Origin: Nitrososphaerota archaeon
GTDB lineage: Archaea; Thermoproteota; Nitrososphaeria; Nitrososphaerales; Nitrosopumilaceae
DNA length: 10,826 nt
Direction of reading: 5' to 3'
Assembly: GCA_005877205.1 (NCBI GenBank)
Contig: VBPL01000016.1
Location: 31,643 to 42,468 of the forward strand
The notes beneath the pieces were generated by a model. It was not told where the DNA came from, searched no databases, and saw only the letters and a program-made list of their open reading frames with translations. The position numbers were made by a program, and so were the translations under genes. Of the stretch, positions 3,464 through 9,420 are shown piece after piece; the first letter of the stretch is position 1; each line of letters begins with the position of its first letter.

Positions 3464-5512
3464 ATGACGCCTCAAGAAATAATTCCTGTTGGTGCGTCAA
3501 TTGTTGCTTTCATTATTGCTGTAGTCCTTGCGGCGTGGGTATCTAAACAAAAACCTGGAACACAACAGATGCTAGATATTTCAAACGCAGTGGGGGTGGG
3601 TGCAATGGCATTTTTGAGAAGAGAGTTTAAAATTGTTATTCCTATAGCTGTAGGTCTTGCAGTCTTGATTGGCATATTATTACGATCTCCCGATGGATTG
3701 CCAACTAATGGTATTGCTTTTGCAGTTGGCGCTGGACTTTCTGCCGTTGCAGGATTGATCTCACTTAAAATTACGGTAAAGGCCGCAGTTCGAGCTGCAA
3801 ACGCGTCAGGAAAAGGGCTTGGACATACATTTGCCCTTGCATTTAGAGGCGGAGCTACAGTAGGACTTGCTGTACCTGCTATGGCTCTTTTGGGCATGAG
3901 CTTACTTTATTTTGCATTTCCAAGTCCTATCACAATTGCAGGAGTTGGTATAGGTGCTAGTTTGATTGCCTTGTTTATCAGAGTAGGTGGTGGAATTTTC
4001 ACAAAGGCTGCAGACATGGGTGCAGACCTAGTAGGGAAAGTAGAGGCAAATATCCCAGAAGATGACCCACGAAACCCTGCTACAATCGCTGATAACGTAG
4101 GAGACAATGTAGGAGATGCAGCTGGAATGGGCTCAGATATTTATGAATCATATATTGTAACCATGCTTGCATCATTGCTGATTGCTGGACTGATTGAAAC
4201 TCCTCAGAACTTGTTTTATCCAATGTTGGTTGGCGCTTCAGGACTATTTGCATCTATTATTGGTGTTGCAACAATAGGACCAAGAAAGATGACTGATGTC
4301 AACAAACCTCTTGCCCGTGCATTTTATGTTTCTGCTGCAATAGCAATCGCACTTAATTTTGTTTTTACATACATATTCCTTGGTCATACTCAGATTGCAT
4401 ACGCTCTTTTTGGTAGTACGGTGATTGGGGTTATTCTAGTACCAGTCATACAGAGGATTACAGACTATTTTACAAGCTACAGATTCAAACCTGTCCAAGA
4501 AATTGCCGAATCTGCAAGATGGGGATATGCTTCACTTACACTAATGGGAATAATACAGGGAATGCGTTCAACAGGCCCTTTCATGATTGCCATTACTATT
4601 GCTCTAGCTACATCATATGTTTTGGCATCATCTGCAGCTCCTGATCCTTCTCAGACTACACTTTATGGAGTCTTTGGCACTTCACTTACCGCAATGGCAA
4701 TGCTAAGTCTTGCAGGGATTGTTTTGAGTATAGATGCATTTGGTCCTATCAGTGACAATGCTGGTGGAATTGTAGAAATGATAGGTATGGGAGAAGAGAA
4801 TCGTAAAGTTACAGATGAAATTGATGCAGTAGGAAATACTACAAAGGCAGTGACCAAGGGTTTTGCCATCGCAAGTGCCGGTCTAGCTGCGTTAGCTATG
4901 ATTCAAGCATTTCAGTATGAAGCGGGAAAAATATTTCATCACACTTTCGATTATAGTCTCTCAAATCCAGCAATAGTTATTGGATTACTTGTAGGAGGTC
5001 TGCTGCCATTCTTTATTACCAGCCAGCTTATATCTGCGGTCGCAAGGGCAGCTTCTAAGATGGTAGAAGAAGTAAGGCGACAATTCAAAGAGACTCCAGA
5101 AATTCTAACAGGTAAAGCAAAACCTGACTATGCAAAATGTGTTGATGTTGCAACCGTAGCTTCATTACGTGAGCTTTGGAAATCCGCAACCATAACGATT
5201 GCAGCCCCAATAGTACTTGGTGTAGTTTTGGGTCCATCTGCTGTAGTTGGACTTTTGATGGGGGCCGTAATAACAGGAATTTTCCTGGCTTTCCATCTGG
5301 CAAATACTGGTGGTGCGTGGGACAATGCCAAAAAGTACATGGAAATTAAAAAACAAAAAGGAACTGAAGAACACAAGATAGCAATTGTTGGCGATATAAT
5401 AGGAGATCCTTACAAGGACACTGCTGGACCAGCACTTAATACAGTCATAAAATTACTCAATACCGTAGCGATTGTCTTTGTTTCTGCCTTTGTTGCACTG
5501 GTAGTTCTATGA
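3464..5512 (+). CDS. hppA: Membrane-integral H+-translocating inorganic pyrophosphatase, K+-independent subtype signature, 682 aa
   Basis: Hallmark block GGGIFTKAADMGADLVGKVEANIPEDDPRNPATIADNVGDNVGDAAGMGSDIYESY. It is a polytopic hydrophobic protein. GNTTKAVTKG at 4832-4861 carries Lys and Thr at the two positions that distinguish K+-independent from K+-dependent enzymes. Confidence 0.95.
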   Translation: MTPQEIIPVGASIVAFIIAVVLAAWVSKQKPGTQQMLDISNAVGVGAMAFLRREFKIVIPIAVGLAVLIGILLRSPDGLPTNGIAFAVGAGLSAVAGLISLKITVKAAVRAANASGKGLGHTFALAFRGGATVGLAVPAMALLGMSLLYFAFPSPITIAGVGIGASLIALFIRVGGGIFTKAADMGADLVGKVEANIPEDDPRNPATIADNVGDNVGDAAGMGSDIYESYIVTMLASLLIAGLIETPQNLFYPMLVGASGLFASIIGVATIGPRKMTDVNKPLARAFYVSAAIAIALNFVFTYIFLGHTQIAYALFGSTVIGVILVPVIQRITDYFTSYRFKPVQEIAESARWGYASLTLMGIIQGMRSTGPFMIAITIALATSYVLASSAAPDPSQTTLYGVFGTSLTAMAMLSLAGIVLSIDAFGPISDNAGGIVEMIGMGEENRKVTDEIDAVGNTTKAVTKGFAIASAGLAALAMIQAFQYEAGKIFHHTFDYSLSNPAIVIGLLVGGLLPFFITSQLISAVARAASKMVEEVRRQFKETPEILTGKAKPDYAKCVDVATVASLRELWKSATITIAAPIVLGVVLGPSAVVGLLMGAVITGIFLAFHLANTGGAWDNAKKYMEIKKQKGTEEHKIAIVGDIIGDPYKDTAGPALNTVIKLLNTVAIVFVSAFVALVVL

Positions 5513-5513
5513 C

Positions 5514-5711
5514 CTACTGAGAATTTTTGTCATCTACTACAATCGTCATGTCAAGTTCATCTATCTGAGCCTCAATAGTTCTTTTCATGGCATCGCTATG
5601 CTCAGGACAGAATTTGAAGAAACCATCAACAGTCTCAAAGCAACCACAGATCCATCTAGTCTGAATTTCTCCTTCTACAGTCAGTTTGTTATAGGTACTT
5701 TTTTTTGTCAC
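5514..5711 (-). CDS. Hypothetical 65-aa protein with Cys/His cluster (WICGC...FCPEH), GTG start
   Basis: ORF with a GTG start (5709-5711). A TATA-like TTTTTTAGAA on the minus strand is centred about 26 nt upstream. No family recognised. Confidence 0.45.
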   Translation of the reverse strand: MTKKSTYNKLTVEGEIQTRWICGCFETVDGFFKFCPEHSDAMKRTIEAQIDELDMTIVVDDKNSQ

Positions 5712-6056: not shown

Positions 6057-6065
6057 ATATTTATT
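6057..6065. promoter_or_regulatory. Single AT-rich TATA-like element (ATATTTATT) in a 53-bp divergent intergenic region
   Basis: Its centre (6061) is 27 nt from the minus-strand ATG at 6034 and 27 nt from the plus-strand ATG at 6088. Confidence 0.4.
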
Positions 6066-6087: not shown

Positions 6088-6480
6088 ATGATGCATAAGG
6101 TGATCGCTGATCTCCCAAAGCTCAAGACCATAGAACTGGAATTAGACGATAAAGTTGCACCAAAAACAGTGCGATCGTTTCTTGATTGTCTCCCTCTTAT
6201 TGTGGGCATAAATGTATGGGGTGAAGAGTTATACACGGACAAAACTCCGATCGAAGTCAATCCAGAAAATTCAAAATCGCTAGTTGAATTGATGGATGTT
6301 GCGTACTGGCCACAAGGCAAGGCTATCTGTCTGTTTTTTGGACCGACCCCTATGGGAAAAAAGGGAGAGATAAGACCCTACTCCCCGGTAAATGTCATAG
6401 GCAAAATGAGAGAAACGGACAAGACGTTCTTAAAAAATGTGAAGAATGGATTGAAGGTGACTTTTAGACTCCCCAAGTAA
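6088..6480 (+). CDS. Cyclophilin-like-fold protein (PF04126/TM1367-like family), 130 aa
   Basis: DVAYWPQGKAICLFFGPTP...PVNVIGKM matches the (D/G).AYW.PG.A.CIFFG...NVIGK signature I associate with this family. Confidence 0.6.
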   Translation: MMHKVIADLPKLKTIELELDDKVAPKTVRSFLDCLPLIVGINVWGEELYTDKTPIEVNPENSKSLVELMDVAYWPQGKAICLFFGPTPMGKKGEIRPYSPVNVIGKMRETDKTFLKNVKNGLKVTFRLPK

Positions 6481-6508
6481 AGTCTTTTAGGCAACCTACA
6501 CGTACTGT

Positions 6509-6613
6509 TTGCCGTTGTGGGGCCCCAAGACTGAATTAAGATGTAAGCAATGCAATGCAACGTTTGTAGATAAGGAACATCTTGAGAGACACAAAAAAAA
6601 CATACACAAGTGA
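6509..6613 (+). CDS. Candidate micro-ORF (34 aa from TTG) encoding a single classical C2H2 zinc finger; not in the ORF track
   Basis: Frame 2 is open from 6491 to 6610, with TGA at 6611-6613. It reads ..CLPLWGPKTELRCKQCNATFVDKEHLERHKKNIHK. That is C-x2-C-x12-H-x4-H with Phe and Leu at the canonical core positions. There is no in-frame ATG; TTG codons lie at 6509 and 6515. Confidence 0.35.
   Translation: MPLWGPKTELRCKQCNATFVDKEHLERHKKNIHK
6593..6600 (-). terminator. Oligo-T (T8 on the minus strand) downstream of the cupredoxin-JAMM operon
   Basis: The A8 at 6593-6600 on the plus strand is a T8 on the minus strand, starting 15 nt after the JAMM stop (6615-6617). The same bases encode the KKN of the candidate zinc finger. 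Confidence 0.45.
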
Positions 6614-6614
6614 T

Positions 6615-7028
6615 CTATAATATCGTCACAACGATGGGAATAATTCCAGACTCAAAGATATAGGCCTTGAATTGATTCTCAGCAATTGAAAAGATAATCC
6701 ATGGATGTGGCTGATTTAGTTCCATGTATTTCTCATCCATTGGAGATGGATATGCAGCTGAGTCTGGATGCGAATGGAAAATTCCAAGTTCAAGTTCTCT
6801 TTTTTCGGCTTCTTTATATGCCACAATGAGATCTTCTGGAGATATTGAAAACTCAACTGAAGAATTTTTTATATTTTTTGTAAGGAAAGCATCCTTTATA
6901 ACAAAGTTTTCGTTTTCAATTTTACCAAACAAAATTGCGCATGATTCATTCGGTACGCAGTCCCGTGCATGTCTAGTGAGAATATCTATATGATTTTTTG
7001 AAAGAACTAATTTTTTTTGTAATGTCAT
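6615..7028 (-). CDS. JAMM/MPN+ zinc metalloprotease (archaeal desampylase/deubiquitinase-like), 137 aa from the first ATG
   Basis: Glu in VPNESCAILFG, then HSHPDSAAYPSPMD (6735-6776), give E...HxH-x7-S-x2-D. The ORF track's 146-aa version starts at GTG 7055, inside the upstream gene. The first ATG (7026-7028) overlaps that gene's TGA as ATGA. Confidence 0.85.
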   Translation of the reverse strand: MTLQKKLVLSKNHIDILTRHARDCVPNESCAILFGKIENENFVIKDAFLTKNIKNSSVEFSISPEDLIVAYKEAEKRELELGIFHSHPDSAAYPSPMDEKYMELNQPHPWIIFSIAENQFKAYIFESGIIPIVVTIL

Positions 7029-8146
7029 CCTACTGTTACTTTTCCAGTCATCCACGGATGAACCTGACAGTAATAATCAAATGAACCTGCAGAATCAAAT
7101 CTGTGCTCAAAGGTCTTACTCGACTTTATCATACCACTATCAAAAATTGTCCCAGTTTGGTTGTCTGTAGATTTTCCACTTGTAACTGTGTGAGAAGCGC
7201 TGTCATCATTTGTCCAAACTACCGTTGTGCCAATCTTAACATCTATTTCTTGTGAGTCGAAATATTTCTGTCCCTCTTTTTGGGTTGATGCGCCACTCGG
7301 AATTGTAACATTTGCAATTACTGGTTTTGTTGCTTCCGTTATCACTATTTTACCCGTCATAAAAGGATGAACAGTACAGAGATAGTCATATTCCTTAGCA
7401 TCAAGTTTTGATGTATCTAGTCTGTAGCTCTTACCTGCTGAAATGATATTTGAATCAAAGATAGAGCCATCAGGTGCACTTGTTACTGTATGGGGCACTT
7501 TATCGTTGTTAGTCCATTCTATTATGTCCCCTTTTGGAACAGAAACAGTTGCTGGATTGAAGCTGGGGTTACCTTGAACTGACGCATTAAGGGGAATCTC
7601 AACTGGGATTATAGGTGCGGTAGGAATCGGTAGAGCTACAGGTTTTGCAGTAGTTACATTTTGAGGATGTAAAGAGAACTCAGCTCCTGGTCCGATAAAA
7701 CCTAATGCCGTGTAAGAACCAATGCCTACGGCCATGGCTGCTAAGAATATTATTGTAATAGGCTTGAAGTAATGTGGCATCTTCATAGAAGCAAATGCGA
7801 TCACAATAGAGGGTACAAGTATGACAAGCAAAGCTCCAACAAATCGTGGTAATGATGTTACGACAGAATTGAGACTTAATGCATATGCTCCAACCGAGCC
7901 CGCAATTCCAAAAATAACAAGAGTTGTAGCTTTTGCTCTTCCACTTGTAGAAACTCCACCGTTTAGGATGCCAGCTGCCAAAAATACCAGTCCTACAAAC
8001 ATAGTCAAACCAGAAAGTGCTTGCATGCCTGTCAGGAATGTGTTTGCAATGCCCATGTAAGATAAAATCACGCCTGCAAGACCGATAGCCGTAAGGCCCA
8101 TTCCTGGCATCATAAGGTCCCAGTCACTCATTTGTGGTAGTTCCAT
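7025..8146 (-). CDS. Membrane-anchored tandem blue-copper protein: about 5 TM helices, a Pro-rich linker and two cupredoxin (plastocyanin/amicyanin-like) domains, 373 aa
   Basis: There are five hydrophobic segments in aa 13-150 and a linker KPVALPIPTAPIIPVEIP. The type-1 Cu ligand sets are PHTVTS...YLCTVHPFM (7358-7378) and SHTVTS...YYCQVHPWM (7049-7069). The start could alternatively be M6 (ATG 8129-8131). Confidence 0.85.
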   Translation of the reverse strand: MELPQMSDWDLMMPGMGLTAIGLAGVILSYMGIANTFLTGMQALSGLTMFVGLVFLAAGILNGGVSTSGRAKATTLVIFGIAGSVGAYALSLNSVVTSLPRFVGALLVILVPSIVIAFASMKMPHYFKPITIIFLAAMAVGIGSYTALGFIGPGAEFSLHPQNVTTAKPVALPIPTAPIIPVEIPLNASVQGNPSFNPATVSVPKGDIIEWTNNDKVPHTVTSAPDGSIFDSNIISAGKSYRLDTSKLDAKEYDYLCTVHPFMTGKIVITEATKPVIANVTIPSGASTQKEGQKYFDSQEIDVKIGTTVVWTNDDSASHTVTSGKSTDNQTGTIFDSGMIKSSKTFEHRFDSAGSFDYYCQVHPWMTGKVTVG

Positions 8147-8222: not shown

Positions 8223-9104
8223 ATGATGGGATTAAAAGAAGTATTTGAAATATCTAAACCAAGAATCATAGTTTTACTTGTTATTACAGCAATAACATCG
8301 ATGTATGCAGCAAGCAAACTCATTGGACCTACTCTGAGTTACACTAGTTTTCTGCATATTATCATTGCAGGTTCACTTGCATCTGCGGGCTCTAGTGCTT
8401 TGAATCACTACTATGATAGAGACATAGATCCTTTGATGAAAAGAACGAGTACAAGGCCAATTCCTTCTGGGAGAATGTCTGCAAAAAACGTGCTACTGTA
8501 TGGTCTCATAGTGAGCGGTATTTCTGTAATTTATGCATGGTTCACACTAAATCCAATTTCTACCCTTTTCATTGCTTTAGGAATATTCTTCTATGTAATA
8601 ATCTACACCGCTTGGCTTAAGCGCAGCAATTCATCGAATATTGTGATAGGAGGTTTTGCGGGAAGCTGCGCATCTATGGCAGGTTGGTCTGCAGCTACTG
8701 GATCAATGGATATACTTGGCGCTCTTGTAGGAATTTTGGTCTTTGTCTGGACTCCGTCTCACTTCTGGTGTCTTGCAATGAAGATAAGAGACGATTATGC
8801 AGAAGCTAGAGTTCCTATGTTGCCAGTACTAATTGGTATGCAAAAAACTTCAAAGTATATTCTAGTTAACACTGCAATATTGTTCCCATATTCTTTAGCA
8901 CTTGTAGCATTCGGTTTGGGTTATGTTTATCTTGTAATAGCTGCAGTCTCAGGGGGTTTGATGTTATTGTATCATTACAAGCTTACAAAAAACCCAACAC
9001 CAGCCTTTGCATGGAAGGCATACAAGGTCACTGCTCCTTATCTTACAATAATATTCGTAGGAATTGCACTAGACGCCGCTTTCCACTTTCCTGTTATAAA
9101 ATAA
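8223..9104 (+). CDS. ctaB: Protoheme IX farnesyltransferase (heme O synthase), UbiA prenyltransferase family, 293 aa
   Basis: NHYYDRDIDPLMKRTSTRPIPSG (NxxxDxxxD motif). The second motif is RDDYAEARVPMLPV. The protein is polytopic and hydrophobic. Confidence 0.9.
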   Translation: MMGLKEVFEISKPRIIVLLVITAITSMYAASKLIGPTLSYTSFLHIIIAGSLASAGSSALNHYYDRDIDPLMKRTSTRPIPSGRMSAKNVLLYGLIVSGISVIYAWFTLNPISTLFIALGIFFYVIIYTAWLKRSNSSNIVIGGFAGSCASMAGWSAATGSMDILGALVGILVFVWTPSHFWCLAMKIRDDYAEARVPMLPVLIGMQKTSKYILVNTAILFPYSLALVAFGLGYVYLVIAAVSGGLMLLYHYKLTKNPTPAFAWKAYKVTAPYLTIIFVGIALDAAFHFPVIK

Positions 9105-9105
9105 A

Positions 9106-9420
9106 TTATTCTTGAATATCTTGTTCTTGTTCGACTCCGGGGAATCCTGCTTCATACTCTCTTTCTAGACTTTCTCTGTTTTGTTTTTCTATCTCGTCCC
9201 CTTCTTTCTCTTTTTCTGCTATCTCTATTCTACGCTCATCCTTTGTTAACCAACTTACTTTGATAAGACCGTAAATTTCAAGATTGAGCAATGTCTTGTT
9301 AAACTCATCTTCGGGAATAGACACGCCAGCTTTGATAAGAGTCTTAAATAGATCTGAGTCAGTCAAAGAGCCAGCGTTTTTTATCGTTTCATATACTAAA
9401 TTCCTAAGTGGCATTGTCAT
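9106..9420 (-). CDS. Hypothetical 104-aa protein with a compact N-terminal domain and a strongly acidic Glu-rich tail; cotranscribed with cdc48
   Basis: Its ATG (9418-9420) is 2 nt downstream of the Cdc48 TAG (9423-9425). 15 of the last 40 residues are Asp or Glu. No family recognised. Confidence 0.55.
   Translation of the reverse strand: MTMPLRNLVYETIKNAGSLTDSDLFKTLIKAGVSIPEDEFNKTLLNLEIYGLIKVSWLTKDERRIEIAEKEKEGDEIEKQNRESLEREYEAGFPGVEQEQDIQE

Follow-up and report, generated by a model that had tools for sequence, protein, structure and literature searches.

The window analyzed here is a 10,826-nucleotide stretch of a genome of a Nitrososphaerota archaeon (family Nitrosopumilaceae), in which a 134-bp gap separates a cyclophilin-like gene from a convergent gene of the Prok-JAB/JAMM type. 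The gap holds a short frame for a single C2H2 zinc finger, preceded by a conserved promoter-like box. The features of the locus are as follows.

3464-5512: H+-pyrophosphatase, neighboring gene
6088-6480: cyclophilin-like protein, neighboring gene on the upstream side
6480-6491, plus strand: promoter-like box AAgtCTTTTAgg, conserved in orthologs; putative promoter
6515-6517, plus strand: TTG start codon; a start codon is found here in 77 of 77 loci
6515-6613, plus strand: probable coding sequence of a 32-aa C2H2 zinc-finger microprotein, including the stop codon TGA (6611-6613); supported by frame conservation, selection, Pfam, and AlphaFold2
6542-6553, plus strand: Cys10 (6542-6544) and Cys13 (6551-6553), first pair of predicted zinc ligands, invariant in all orthologs
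6566-6607, plus strand: predicted helix Val18-His31 with the signature D19-[KR]-[ED]-H22-[LF]-E24-R25-H26, from the ortholog alignment and AlphaFold2
6590-6592 and 6605-6607, plus strand: His26 and His31, second pair of predicted zinc ligands
6615-7055, minus strand: Prok-JAB/JAMM, convergent neighboring gene
7025-8146, minus strand: double cupredoxin, neighboring gene
8223-9104: UbiA-type prenyltransferase, neighboring gene
A Cdc48-like AAA ATPase is also encoded in the neighborhood.

Frame 2 of the plus strand is open from 6491, directly after a TAG at 6488-6490, up to the TGA at 6611-6613, and is translated as ATYTYCLPLWGPKTELRCKQCNATFVDKEHLERHKKNIHK. It encodes C-x2-C-x12-H-x4-H and contains no ATG, and TTG codons are located at 6509-6511 and 6515-6517. 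Translation of 6491-6613 bears out the original prediction of a textbook C2H2 finger in frame 2, without an ATG and in a frame that is open only from 6491. The prediction was also accurate in naming an antisense frame (6378-6560) as the sole open reading frame called over the gap, which holds for frames of at least 50 aa, and in reading TVCRCGAP in frame 3 just upstream (within ORF 6468-6539); the G4C4 run, which it placed at 6518-6526, actually occupies 6519-6526. When all six frames of the 1.56-Mb genome were scanned with the strict finger pattern C-x2-C-x3-[FY]-x5-hydrophobic-x2-H-x3-5-H, five matches were found in the whole genome, compared with 0, 0, 1, 0, and 0 matches in five shuffled genomes. 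Thus, the occurrence of a finger inside a gap of 134 bp is not due to chance.

A six-frame search recovered the peptide in 21 of 24 congeners (E values from 4e-9 to 5e-17), and a pattern scan of species-representative genomes yielded 80 loci, 77 of which were distinct and usable. The 77 loci include those of “Ca. N. devanaterra,” N. bavarica, and strains TS and FS. In “Ca. N. devanaterra,” the ortholog is located at about 1,071,554-1,071,649 of LN890280.1. Identity to the peptide of the window is 54 to 76% in the search of the 24 congeners and reaches 81% among the species-representative loci, while the flanking proteins show 54 to 63% (JAMM) and 63 to 74% (cupredoxin) identity; the finger peptide is no less conserved than these neighbors.

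The codon homologous to 6515-6517 is TTG in 50, ATG in 23, and GTG in 4 of the 77 loci and is never a non-start codon. An in-frame stop codon immediately precedes it in 17 loci, in which nothing longer is possible, and the products range from 31 to 34 aa across the entire set. The original prediction had left the choice between TTG 6509 (34 aa) and TTG 6515 (32 aa) and had proposed a search for a longer, ATG-initiated ortholog. ATG-initiated orthologs do exist, but they are of the same length rather than longer, and because their ATG aligns exactly with TTG 6515 in all 23 cases, the product is taken to be 32 aa and not 34 aa. Translation of the same gene from TTG 6509 into a 34-aa product (M-P-L-W-G...) can draw on the presence of TTG at that position in 44 of the 77 loci and on the NCBI annotation of two metagenome-assembled genome (MAG) orthologs, in which it was chosen (34 and 35 aa). 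Against it, the aligned codon is a non-start codon (CTG, TTT, TAC, GTC, ATT, and others) in about 30 of the 77 loci, lies beyond an in-frame stop codon in at least 18 loci, and is only about 24 nucleotides from the TTTTA element of the upstream box, versus 30 nucleotides for TTG 6515. We regard the upstream start as very unlikely; of the two predicted starts, it is 6515, with its 32-aa product, that stands in the 77-locus alignment.

Pairwise comparisons of the finger frame gave saturated synonymous differences (pS of 0.75 to 0.82) together with a pN of 0.12 to 0.17, that is, a pN/pS ratio of 0.16 to 0.21, and variable sites were distributed over the three codon positions as 20/10/46 and 25/20/49 in two comparisons, although the relatives are kin rather than independent samples, and both the ortholog counts and the selection figures therefore overstate the statistical weight. 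Despite this kinship, the conservation of the gene and the result on selection are qualitatively beyond doubt. The finger frame is the only one that is open in all 71 relatives compared (pN/pS of 0.21); each of the other five frames carries stop codons in 28 to 71 of the 71 relatives, and the pN/pS ratio is at least 1.1 in all but one of them. As judged from these substitution patterns, purifying selection is acting on the finger reading frame. Among the observations named in advance as ones that would speak against a gene were a lack of conservation of the peptide as opposed to the nucleotide sequence and a lack of codon-position bias; instead, the peptide itself is kept and the variation is phased by codon.

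Stop codons in the other frames, together with pN/pS ratios mostly at or above 1.1, rule out the antisense ORF and any purely nucleotide-level element as the source of the conservation. Such a source (a noncoding RNA or terminator, the antisense ORF at 6378-6560, or the 3' ends of the neighboring genes) might have been suspected, as the stretch is wedged between two genes whose transcripts must terminate there and as an antisense frame was called in the ORF list. The antisense frames, however, are broken by stop codons in 28 to 69 of the 71 relatives, the variation follows the codons (25/20/49), an Rfam search of 6300-6800 gave no match at an E value of ≤1, and the finger gene and its promoter box are kept where the upstream cyclophilin-like gene is missing. 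This explanation is extremely improbable.

The accuracy of the sequence was assessed by comparing 6300-6800 with contigs of four soil metagenomes from four different studies, in which near-identical sequences are present. No insertion or deletion was found between 6388 and 6800 in these four independent assemblies, which indicates that the homopolymer run is not a sequencing error. The variants that fall within the gene (6568, 6577, and 6580) are without exception synonymous, each of them hitting the third codon position, of Val18, Glu21, and His22, respectively. The gene stretch was absent from three metatranscriptomes of a related study. The G4 half of the run encodes the conserved Trp2-Gly3, and the C4 half encodes Pro4 of the species itself. 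These data bear on the idea of a decayed remnant, also raised in the original prediction with the G4C4 run as a plausible frameshift site; on this view, a frameshift there or elsewhere has disrupted a once longer C2H2 gene, and the finger is the tail left over, which is no longer translated. A frame without an ATG, a Cys-rich TVCRCGAP in another frame just upstream, and the homopolymer pair at 6519-6526 are what one might expect of such a remnant. However, a longer homologous frame was found in no relative, orthologs that start with ATG measure only 31 to 32 aa, and 17 loci carry a stop codon directly ahead of the start codon. Moreover, nonsynonymous divergence remains at about 0.15 while synonymous sites are saturated, the upstream frame-3 reading is unconserved in a spacer that is nearly uninformative outside the TTTTA box, none of the four independent assemblies contains an indel, and the two halves of the run are the codons named above. 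The remnant hypothesis has to be abandoned as having next to no probability.

Considering these comparative data, it is very likely that 6515-6613 on the plus strand is a functional gene that encodes a 32-residue protein consisting of one classical C2H2 finger and a basic tail. The archaeon that carries it is an ammonia oxidizer, a “Candidatus Nitrosotalea” species from soil.

The box upstream of the gene (6480-6491) combines a BRE-like AA (6480-6481) with the TATA-like core TTTTA (6485-6489), the first T of which lies 30 nucleotides before the start codon at 6515. In an alignment anchored at the start codon, TTTTA is invariant in all 77 orthologous loci, 29 to 31 nucleotides upstream of the start; the upstream consensus is AA-t-c-C-TTTTA-c-g, and the remainder of the spacer is unconserved. 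Among the 645 genes of the same genome with an unambiguous ATG, the tetramers TTTA, TTAA, and TATA peak at -31 to -27, and no Shine-Dalgarno-type signal is visible. Thus, the promoter-to-start distance of the finger gene is typical of its genome, in which leaderless transcripts appear to be the rule for first genes. Another example of a TATA-like box in the window is located at 6057-6065.

We infer that the TTTTA box would serve as a TBP/TFB promoter. Archaeal TATA elements are centered about 26 to 27 nucleotides before the transcription start, and because the distance between the box and the start codon matches this spacing, the mRNA of the finger gene would be leaderless or nearly leaderless, with transcription starting at, or a few bases from, TTG 6515. 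No Shine-Dalgarno-like motif precedes TTG 6515. Judging from haloarchaea and Sulfolobus, TTG would be an inefficient place to initiate translation when the mRNA has no leader. As far as is known, leaderless transcripts seldom start with TTG, and this is the main remaining oddity of the gene.

The 32-aa product scores 25.0 bits against the Pfam zf-C2H2 family (E value of 2.3e-5), which is 0.2 bit short of the curated cutoff of 25.2; the family model matches 16 of 16 orthologs (best E value, 7.9e-7), and the ortholog of “Ca. N. devanaterra” is above the cutoff, with 28.0 bits. The ligand spacing, C10-x2-C13-x12-H26-x4-H31, fits the classical C-x2-4-C-x12-H-x3-5-H and is kept in the 77 loci, except that one subgroup has H-x3-H; both forms are within the range of the family. 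In alignments, Cys10 and Cys13 coincide with the CxxC of the Pfam zf-C2H2 model and of the PRDM9 and ZFP568 fingers. The hydrophobic core is also that of a classical C2H2 finger, with F17 invariant and L or F at position 23 in all orthologs. The complete set of invariant residues comprises C10, C13, F17, D19, H22, E24, R25, H26, K28, and the last His.

An AlphaFold2 model built from a 16-sequence alignment (mean pLDDT of 85.5) has two short strands and a helix over residues 20 to 30; the protein is thus predicted to fold as a beta-beta-alpha C2H2 finger. Each of the 36 best Foldseek matches among PDB structures is a finger of the classical C2H2 type (Tramtrack, ZFAT, ZNF484, CTCF, PRDM9, and Zif268-type), with TM scores up to 0.84 and, for most, rmsd values of 0.4 to 1.1 Å over 21 to 30 residues, while the Foldseek E values are not significant for so short a model. 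A sequence profile search of the PDB at an E value of ≤0.01 returned 26 sequences, which belong only to C2H2 proteins. Cys10, Cys13, His26, and His31 would bind one zinc ion and thereby fold the peptide. The term “eukaryote-style” used in the original prediction is appropriate for the fold only, as such fingers are common in Nitrosopumilaceae.

The stop codons of the finger gene (6611-6613) and of the convergent JAMM gene (6615-6617) are 1 nucleotide apart, and the same spacing, as had been pointed out for two further gene pairs in the window, recurs at 5512/5514 and 9104/9106; the three convergent pairs are located at 5510-5516, 6611-6617, and 9102-9108. In all loci examined, the finger gene is arranged tail to tail with JAMM and then cupredoxin. 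Because a spacing of 1 to 2 nucleotides between the finger and JAMM stop codons is typical of the relatives, the two transcripts necessarily overlap at their 3' ends. Beyond the finger stop codon, an oligo-T run of at least 5 is not met until about 6798-6806, within the JAMM gene.

On the other side, the cyclophilin-like gene is present in some Nitrosotalea genomes, whereas others lack it or keep just a 3' remnant of it; the finger gene and its box persist even there. The finger gene is therefore an independent unit. The patchy distribution of the cyclophilin-like gene in the genus was seen by tblastn (loci L016, L018-L023, L026-L031, and L042); in L018, L020, and L042, all that is left of it is a piece of its 3' end (…TEITFRLE), and CAA has replaced the stop codon in L018 and L042. 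One relative, in which the stop codon is lost and a 70-aa frame is open, suggested a fusion of the finger with the cyclophilin-like gene. This was rejected, as the two genes of the window are in different frames with a stop codon between them and the finger gene persists without the upstream gene. A variant contig that co-occurs in three soil metagenomes has a 2-nt deletion at 6324 and four single-nucleotide polymorphisms in the cyclophilin-like gene, and it may mark a strain in which this gene is breaking down.

Of the 27 Nitrosopumilaceae genera sampled, 4 yielded orthologs at an E value of ≤1e-14 (9 of 9, 9 of 10, 5 of 5, and 7 of 9 genomes). Two further genera gave weak matches only (E values of about 1e-6 to 1e-7), which are probably paralogs, and no match was obtained in the remaining 21 of the 27 sampled genera. 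In two genera without the finger gene, the convergent cyclophilin-like and JAMM genes practically touch (L140:1488-1495 and L141:1496-1501), and it is exactly at this junction that the Nitrosotalea-side genera have a unit of about 135 bp composed of promoter and finger. In this unrooted comparison, the finger gene was thus either acquired on the Nitrosotalea side or has disappeared from other lineages.

Small C2H2 proteins are frequent in this group of archaea. At an E value of ≤1e-3, zf-C2H2 matches were found in 25 of 26 sampled genomes of the family (one to six in each, mostly in short frames) and in 47 of 81 genomes of the class, versus 1 of 14 control genomes. The genome studied here has at least five other small C2H2 ORFs with products of about 34 to 67 aa, one of them two-fingered, and also encodes longer proteins with a finger at the C terminus.

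C85:25625-25828: small C2H2 frame
C44:12286-12456: small C2H2 frame
C10:16869-17012: small C2H2 frame
C47:34658-34792: small C2H2 frame
C83:12874-12996: small C2H2 frame
C1:2603-3229: protein of about 100 to 200 aa with a C-terminal finger
C90:1843-2172: protein of about 100 to 200 aa with a C-terminal finger

The ESM Atlas likewise contains many clusters of 32- to 74-aa C2H2 proteins, automatically named “Zinc finger, C2H2 type,” some of which are from Nitrososphaerota. Proteins of about 45 aa that carry the DKEHLERHKK signature (L033, L136, and L138) were considered as orthologs and rejected, being paralogs at unrelated loci. This paralog family has a single finger (DKEHLERHKK..HKKGR) and a Lys/Ser-rich N terminus and occurs in other lineages of Nitrososphaerales and Nitrosopumilales, at loci without JAMM or cupredoxin.

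L033:1420-1584, minus strand: paralog of about 45 aa
L136:1453-1599: paralog of about 45 aa
L138:1423-1599: paralog of about 45 aa

The family of the 45-aa paralogs may be the source of the 32-aa gene.

The ortholog group itself is barely annotated, while its kind, small archaeal C2H2 proteins, is known. Exact-sequence look-ups showed that 3 of 16 orthologs are on record, all as “hypothetical protein” and from MAGs of one locus-tag series, and in a few MAGs the NCBI annotation calls the exact 32- or 33-aa frame from TTG. Neither the peptide of the window nor the sequence shared with “Ca. N. devanaterra” was on record in these look-ups, which suggests that the cultured type genome, too, is without an annotation of the gene. 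An exhaustive HMMER search of 1.84 billion representative sequences returned only two single-finger clusters of the ortholog group (35 and 32 aa); the best 150 matches are otherwise almost all longer multifinger proteins, with one 57-aa two-finger protein, and no functional lead was found among them. A word-index protein search with the 40-aa stop-to-stop peptide gave no match, which is attributable to a limit of the tool because exact look-ups and HMMER did find annotated orthologs. An NCBIfam search gave no meaningful match, and a literature search revealed no paper linking zinc fingers with Nitrosotalea (in the ammonia-oxidizer papers examined, “C2H2” stands for acetylene).

What the finger binds can be approached through its helix. 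By hand mapping to the Zif268 numbering, D19, E/D21, H22, and R25 occupy helix positions -1, 2, 3, and 6, which contact bases in eukaryotic fingers. The invariance of the residues at these positions points to a single ligand that is itself conserved. The invariant helix face (D19, K/R20, H22, E24, R25, and K28), combined with a net charge of about +4, would bind a specific conserved partner. This partner would most likely be a nucleic acid, which would make the protein a small regulator or a nucleic-acid-associated factor, while a protein partner is the main alternative. As DNA binding is usually weak for a lone finger that lacks long basic flanks, a nucleic-acid function is a guess, and we give nucleic acid slightly less than an even chance of being the ligand. 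In summary, we picture the product as a zinc-stabilized binding module, most likely for nucleic acid.

Alternatively, the microprotein may bind protein or handle metal instead of binding nucleic acid; it could serve the neighboring JAMM metalloprotease and membrane cupredoxin as an adaptor or regulator, or it could buffer zinc or copper. The constant tail-to-tail arrangement with the JAMM-cupredoxin pair, the neighborhood of metal proteins, and the ability of single C2H2 fingers to mediate protein contacts are consistent with this possibility, as are the pleiotropic, nontranscriptional phenotypes of one-domain zinc-finger micro-proteins in Haloferax (PMC6562870). However, the convergent orientation means that the finger gene is not cotranscribed with these neighbors, and JAMM and cupredoxin have the same arrangement without a finger gene in the two genera examined, which indicates that they do not need it. 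Such a role is possible but distinctly less probable than nucleic-acid binding.

A bolder version of the nucleic-acid reading, which we consider rather unlikely, is that the finger is an innovation of acid-soil Nitrosotalea, inserted with its leaderless promoter between two genes that are direct neighbors in other genera, that would act as a minimal sequence-specific regulator (e.g., of genes for metal or pH adaptation) or whose transcript would run antisense into the JAMM-cupredoxin operon. If true, few natural C2H2 regulators that act autonomously would be as small, and the protein would provide a tractable model, in archaea, of classical zinc fingers before the arrays of eukaryotes.

The 32-aa finger gene is not a new kind of system; as far as its sequence allows one to judge, its product is an ordinary small archaeal zinc-finger protein that is conserved in the soil ammonia-oxidizing Nitrosotalea lineage. 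Our analysis shows that comparative data by themselves suffice to recover, with confidence, a gene of 32 codons that starts with TTG, and it supplies a conserved gene that most Nitrosotalea annotations lack. Ammonia-oxidizing archaea have several stand-alone classical zinc fingers per genome, none with a known partner. The present finger is of a size suited to chemical synthesis and is confined to one clade, and the invariant face of its helix is sharply defined; it thus offers a convenient entry to the roles of archaeal fingers.

Among the closest known systems, the other small stand-alone C2H2 proteins of Nitrososphaerota resemble the 32-aa protein in size, in single- or double-finger architecture, and in phylum, but the present gene has its own signature (MWG...FxDKEH[LF]ERHKK) and its own locus and was found in only 4 of 27 sampled genera. 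AFV1p06 of a crenarchaeal virus is likewise an archaeal protein with a eukaryote-type C2H2 fold; its fold has been solved, it binds DNA, and no homologue was found in Thaumarchaeota (PMC3541406). The 26 PDB sequences that the ortholog profile retrieved at an E value of ≤0.01 do not include it, and, in contrast to this viral protein, the present gene is chromosomal and syntenic. The one-domain zinc-finger micro-proteins of Haloferax volcanii are also archaeal and consist of essentially one zinc-binding domain, as predicted here. They are shorter than 70 aa, are often missed by annotation, have mostly unknown partners, and carry four-Cys C(P)XCG motifs in zinc-ribbon or knuckle-type folds (PMC6562870, PMC10716476, PMC11241148). 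The 32-aa finger, with only two Cys residues (CKQC), no CPXCG, and no sequence relationship, is not a member of this type. It also differs from the Ros/MucR proteins: it has the 12-residue spacer of eukaryotic fingers and is made up of the finger alone, whereas in Ros the Cys-His spacer is shorter and a larger globular domain, of about 58 residues, is part of a chain of about 140 aa. As cited in PMC6562870, Ros/MucR are prokaryotic Cys2His2 regulators that bind DNA via a single finger-containing domain. With the classical eukaryotic C2H2 fingers (TFIIIA/Zif268/Krueppel-type, PF00096), the archaeal protein shares C-x2-C-x12-H-x3/4-H, the core of Phe and Leu/Phe, and the predicted beta-beta-alpha fold; its best matches in sequence and structure are fingers of PRDM9, ZFP568, Tramtrack, and CTCF. 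In eukaryotes, however, such fingers form arrays joined by TGEKP linkers, whereas here a lone finger of 32 residues makes up the entire archaeal protein.
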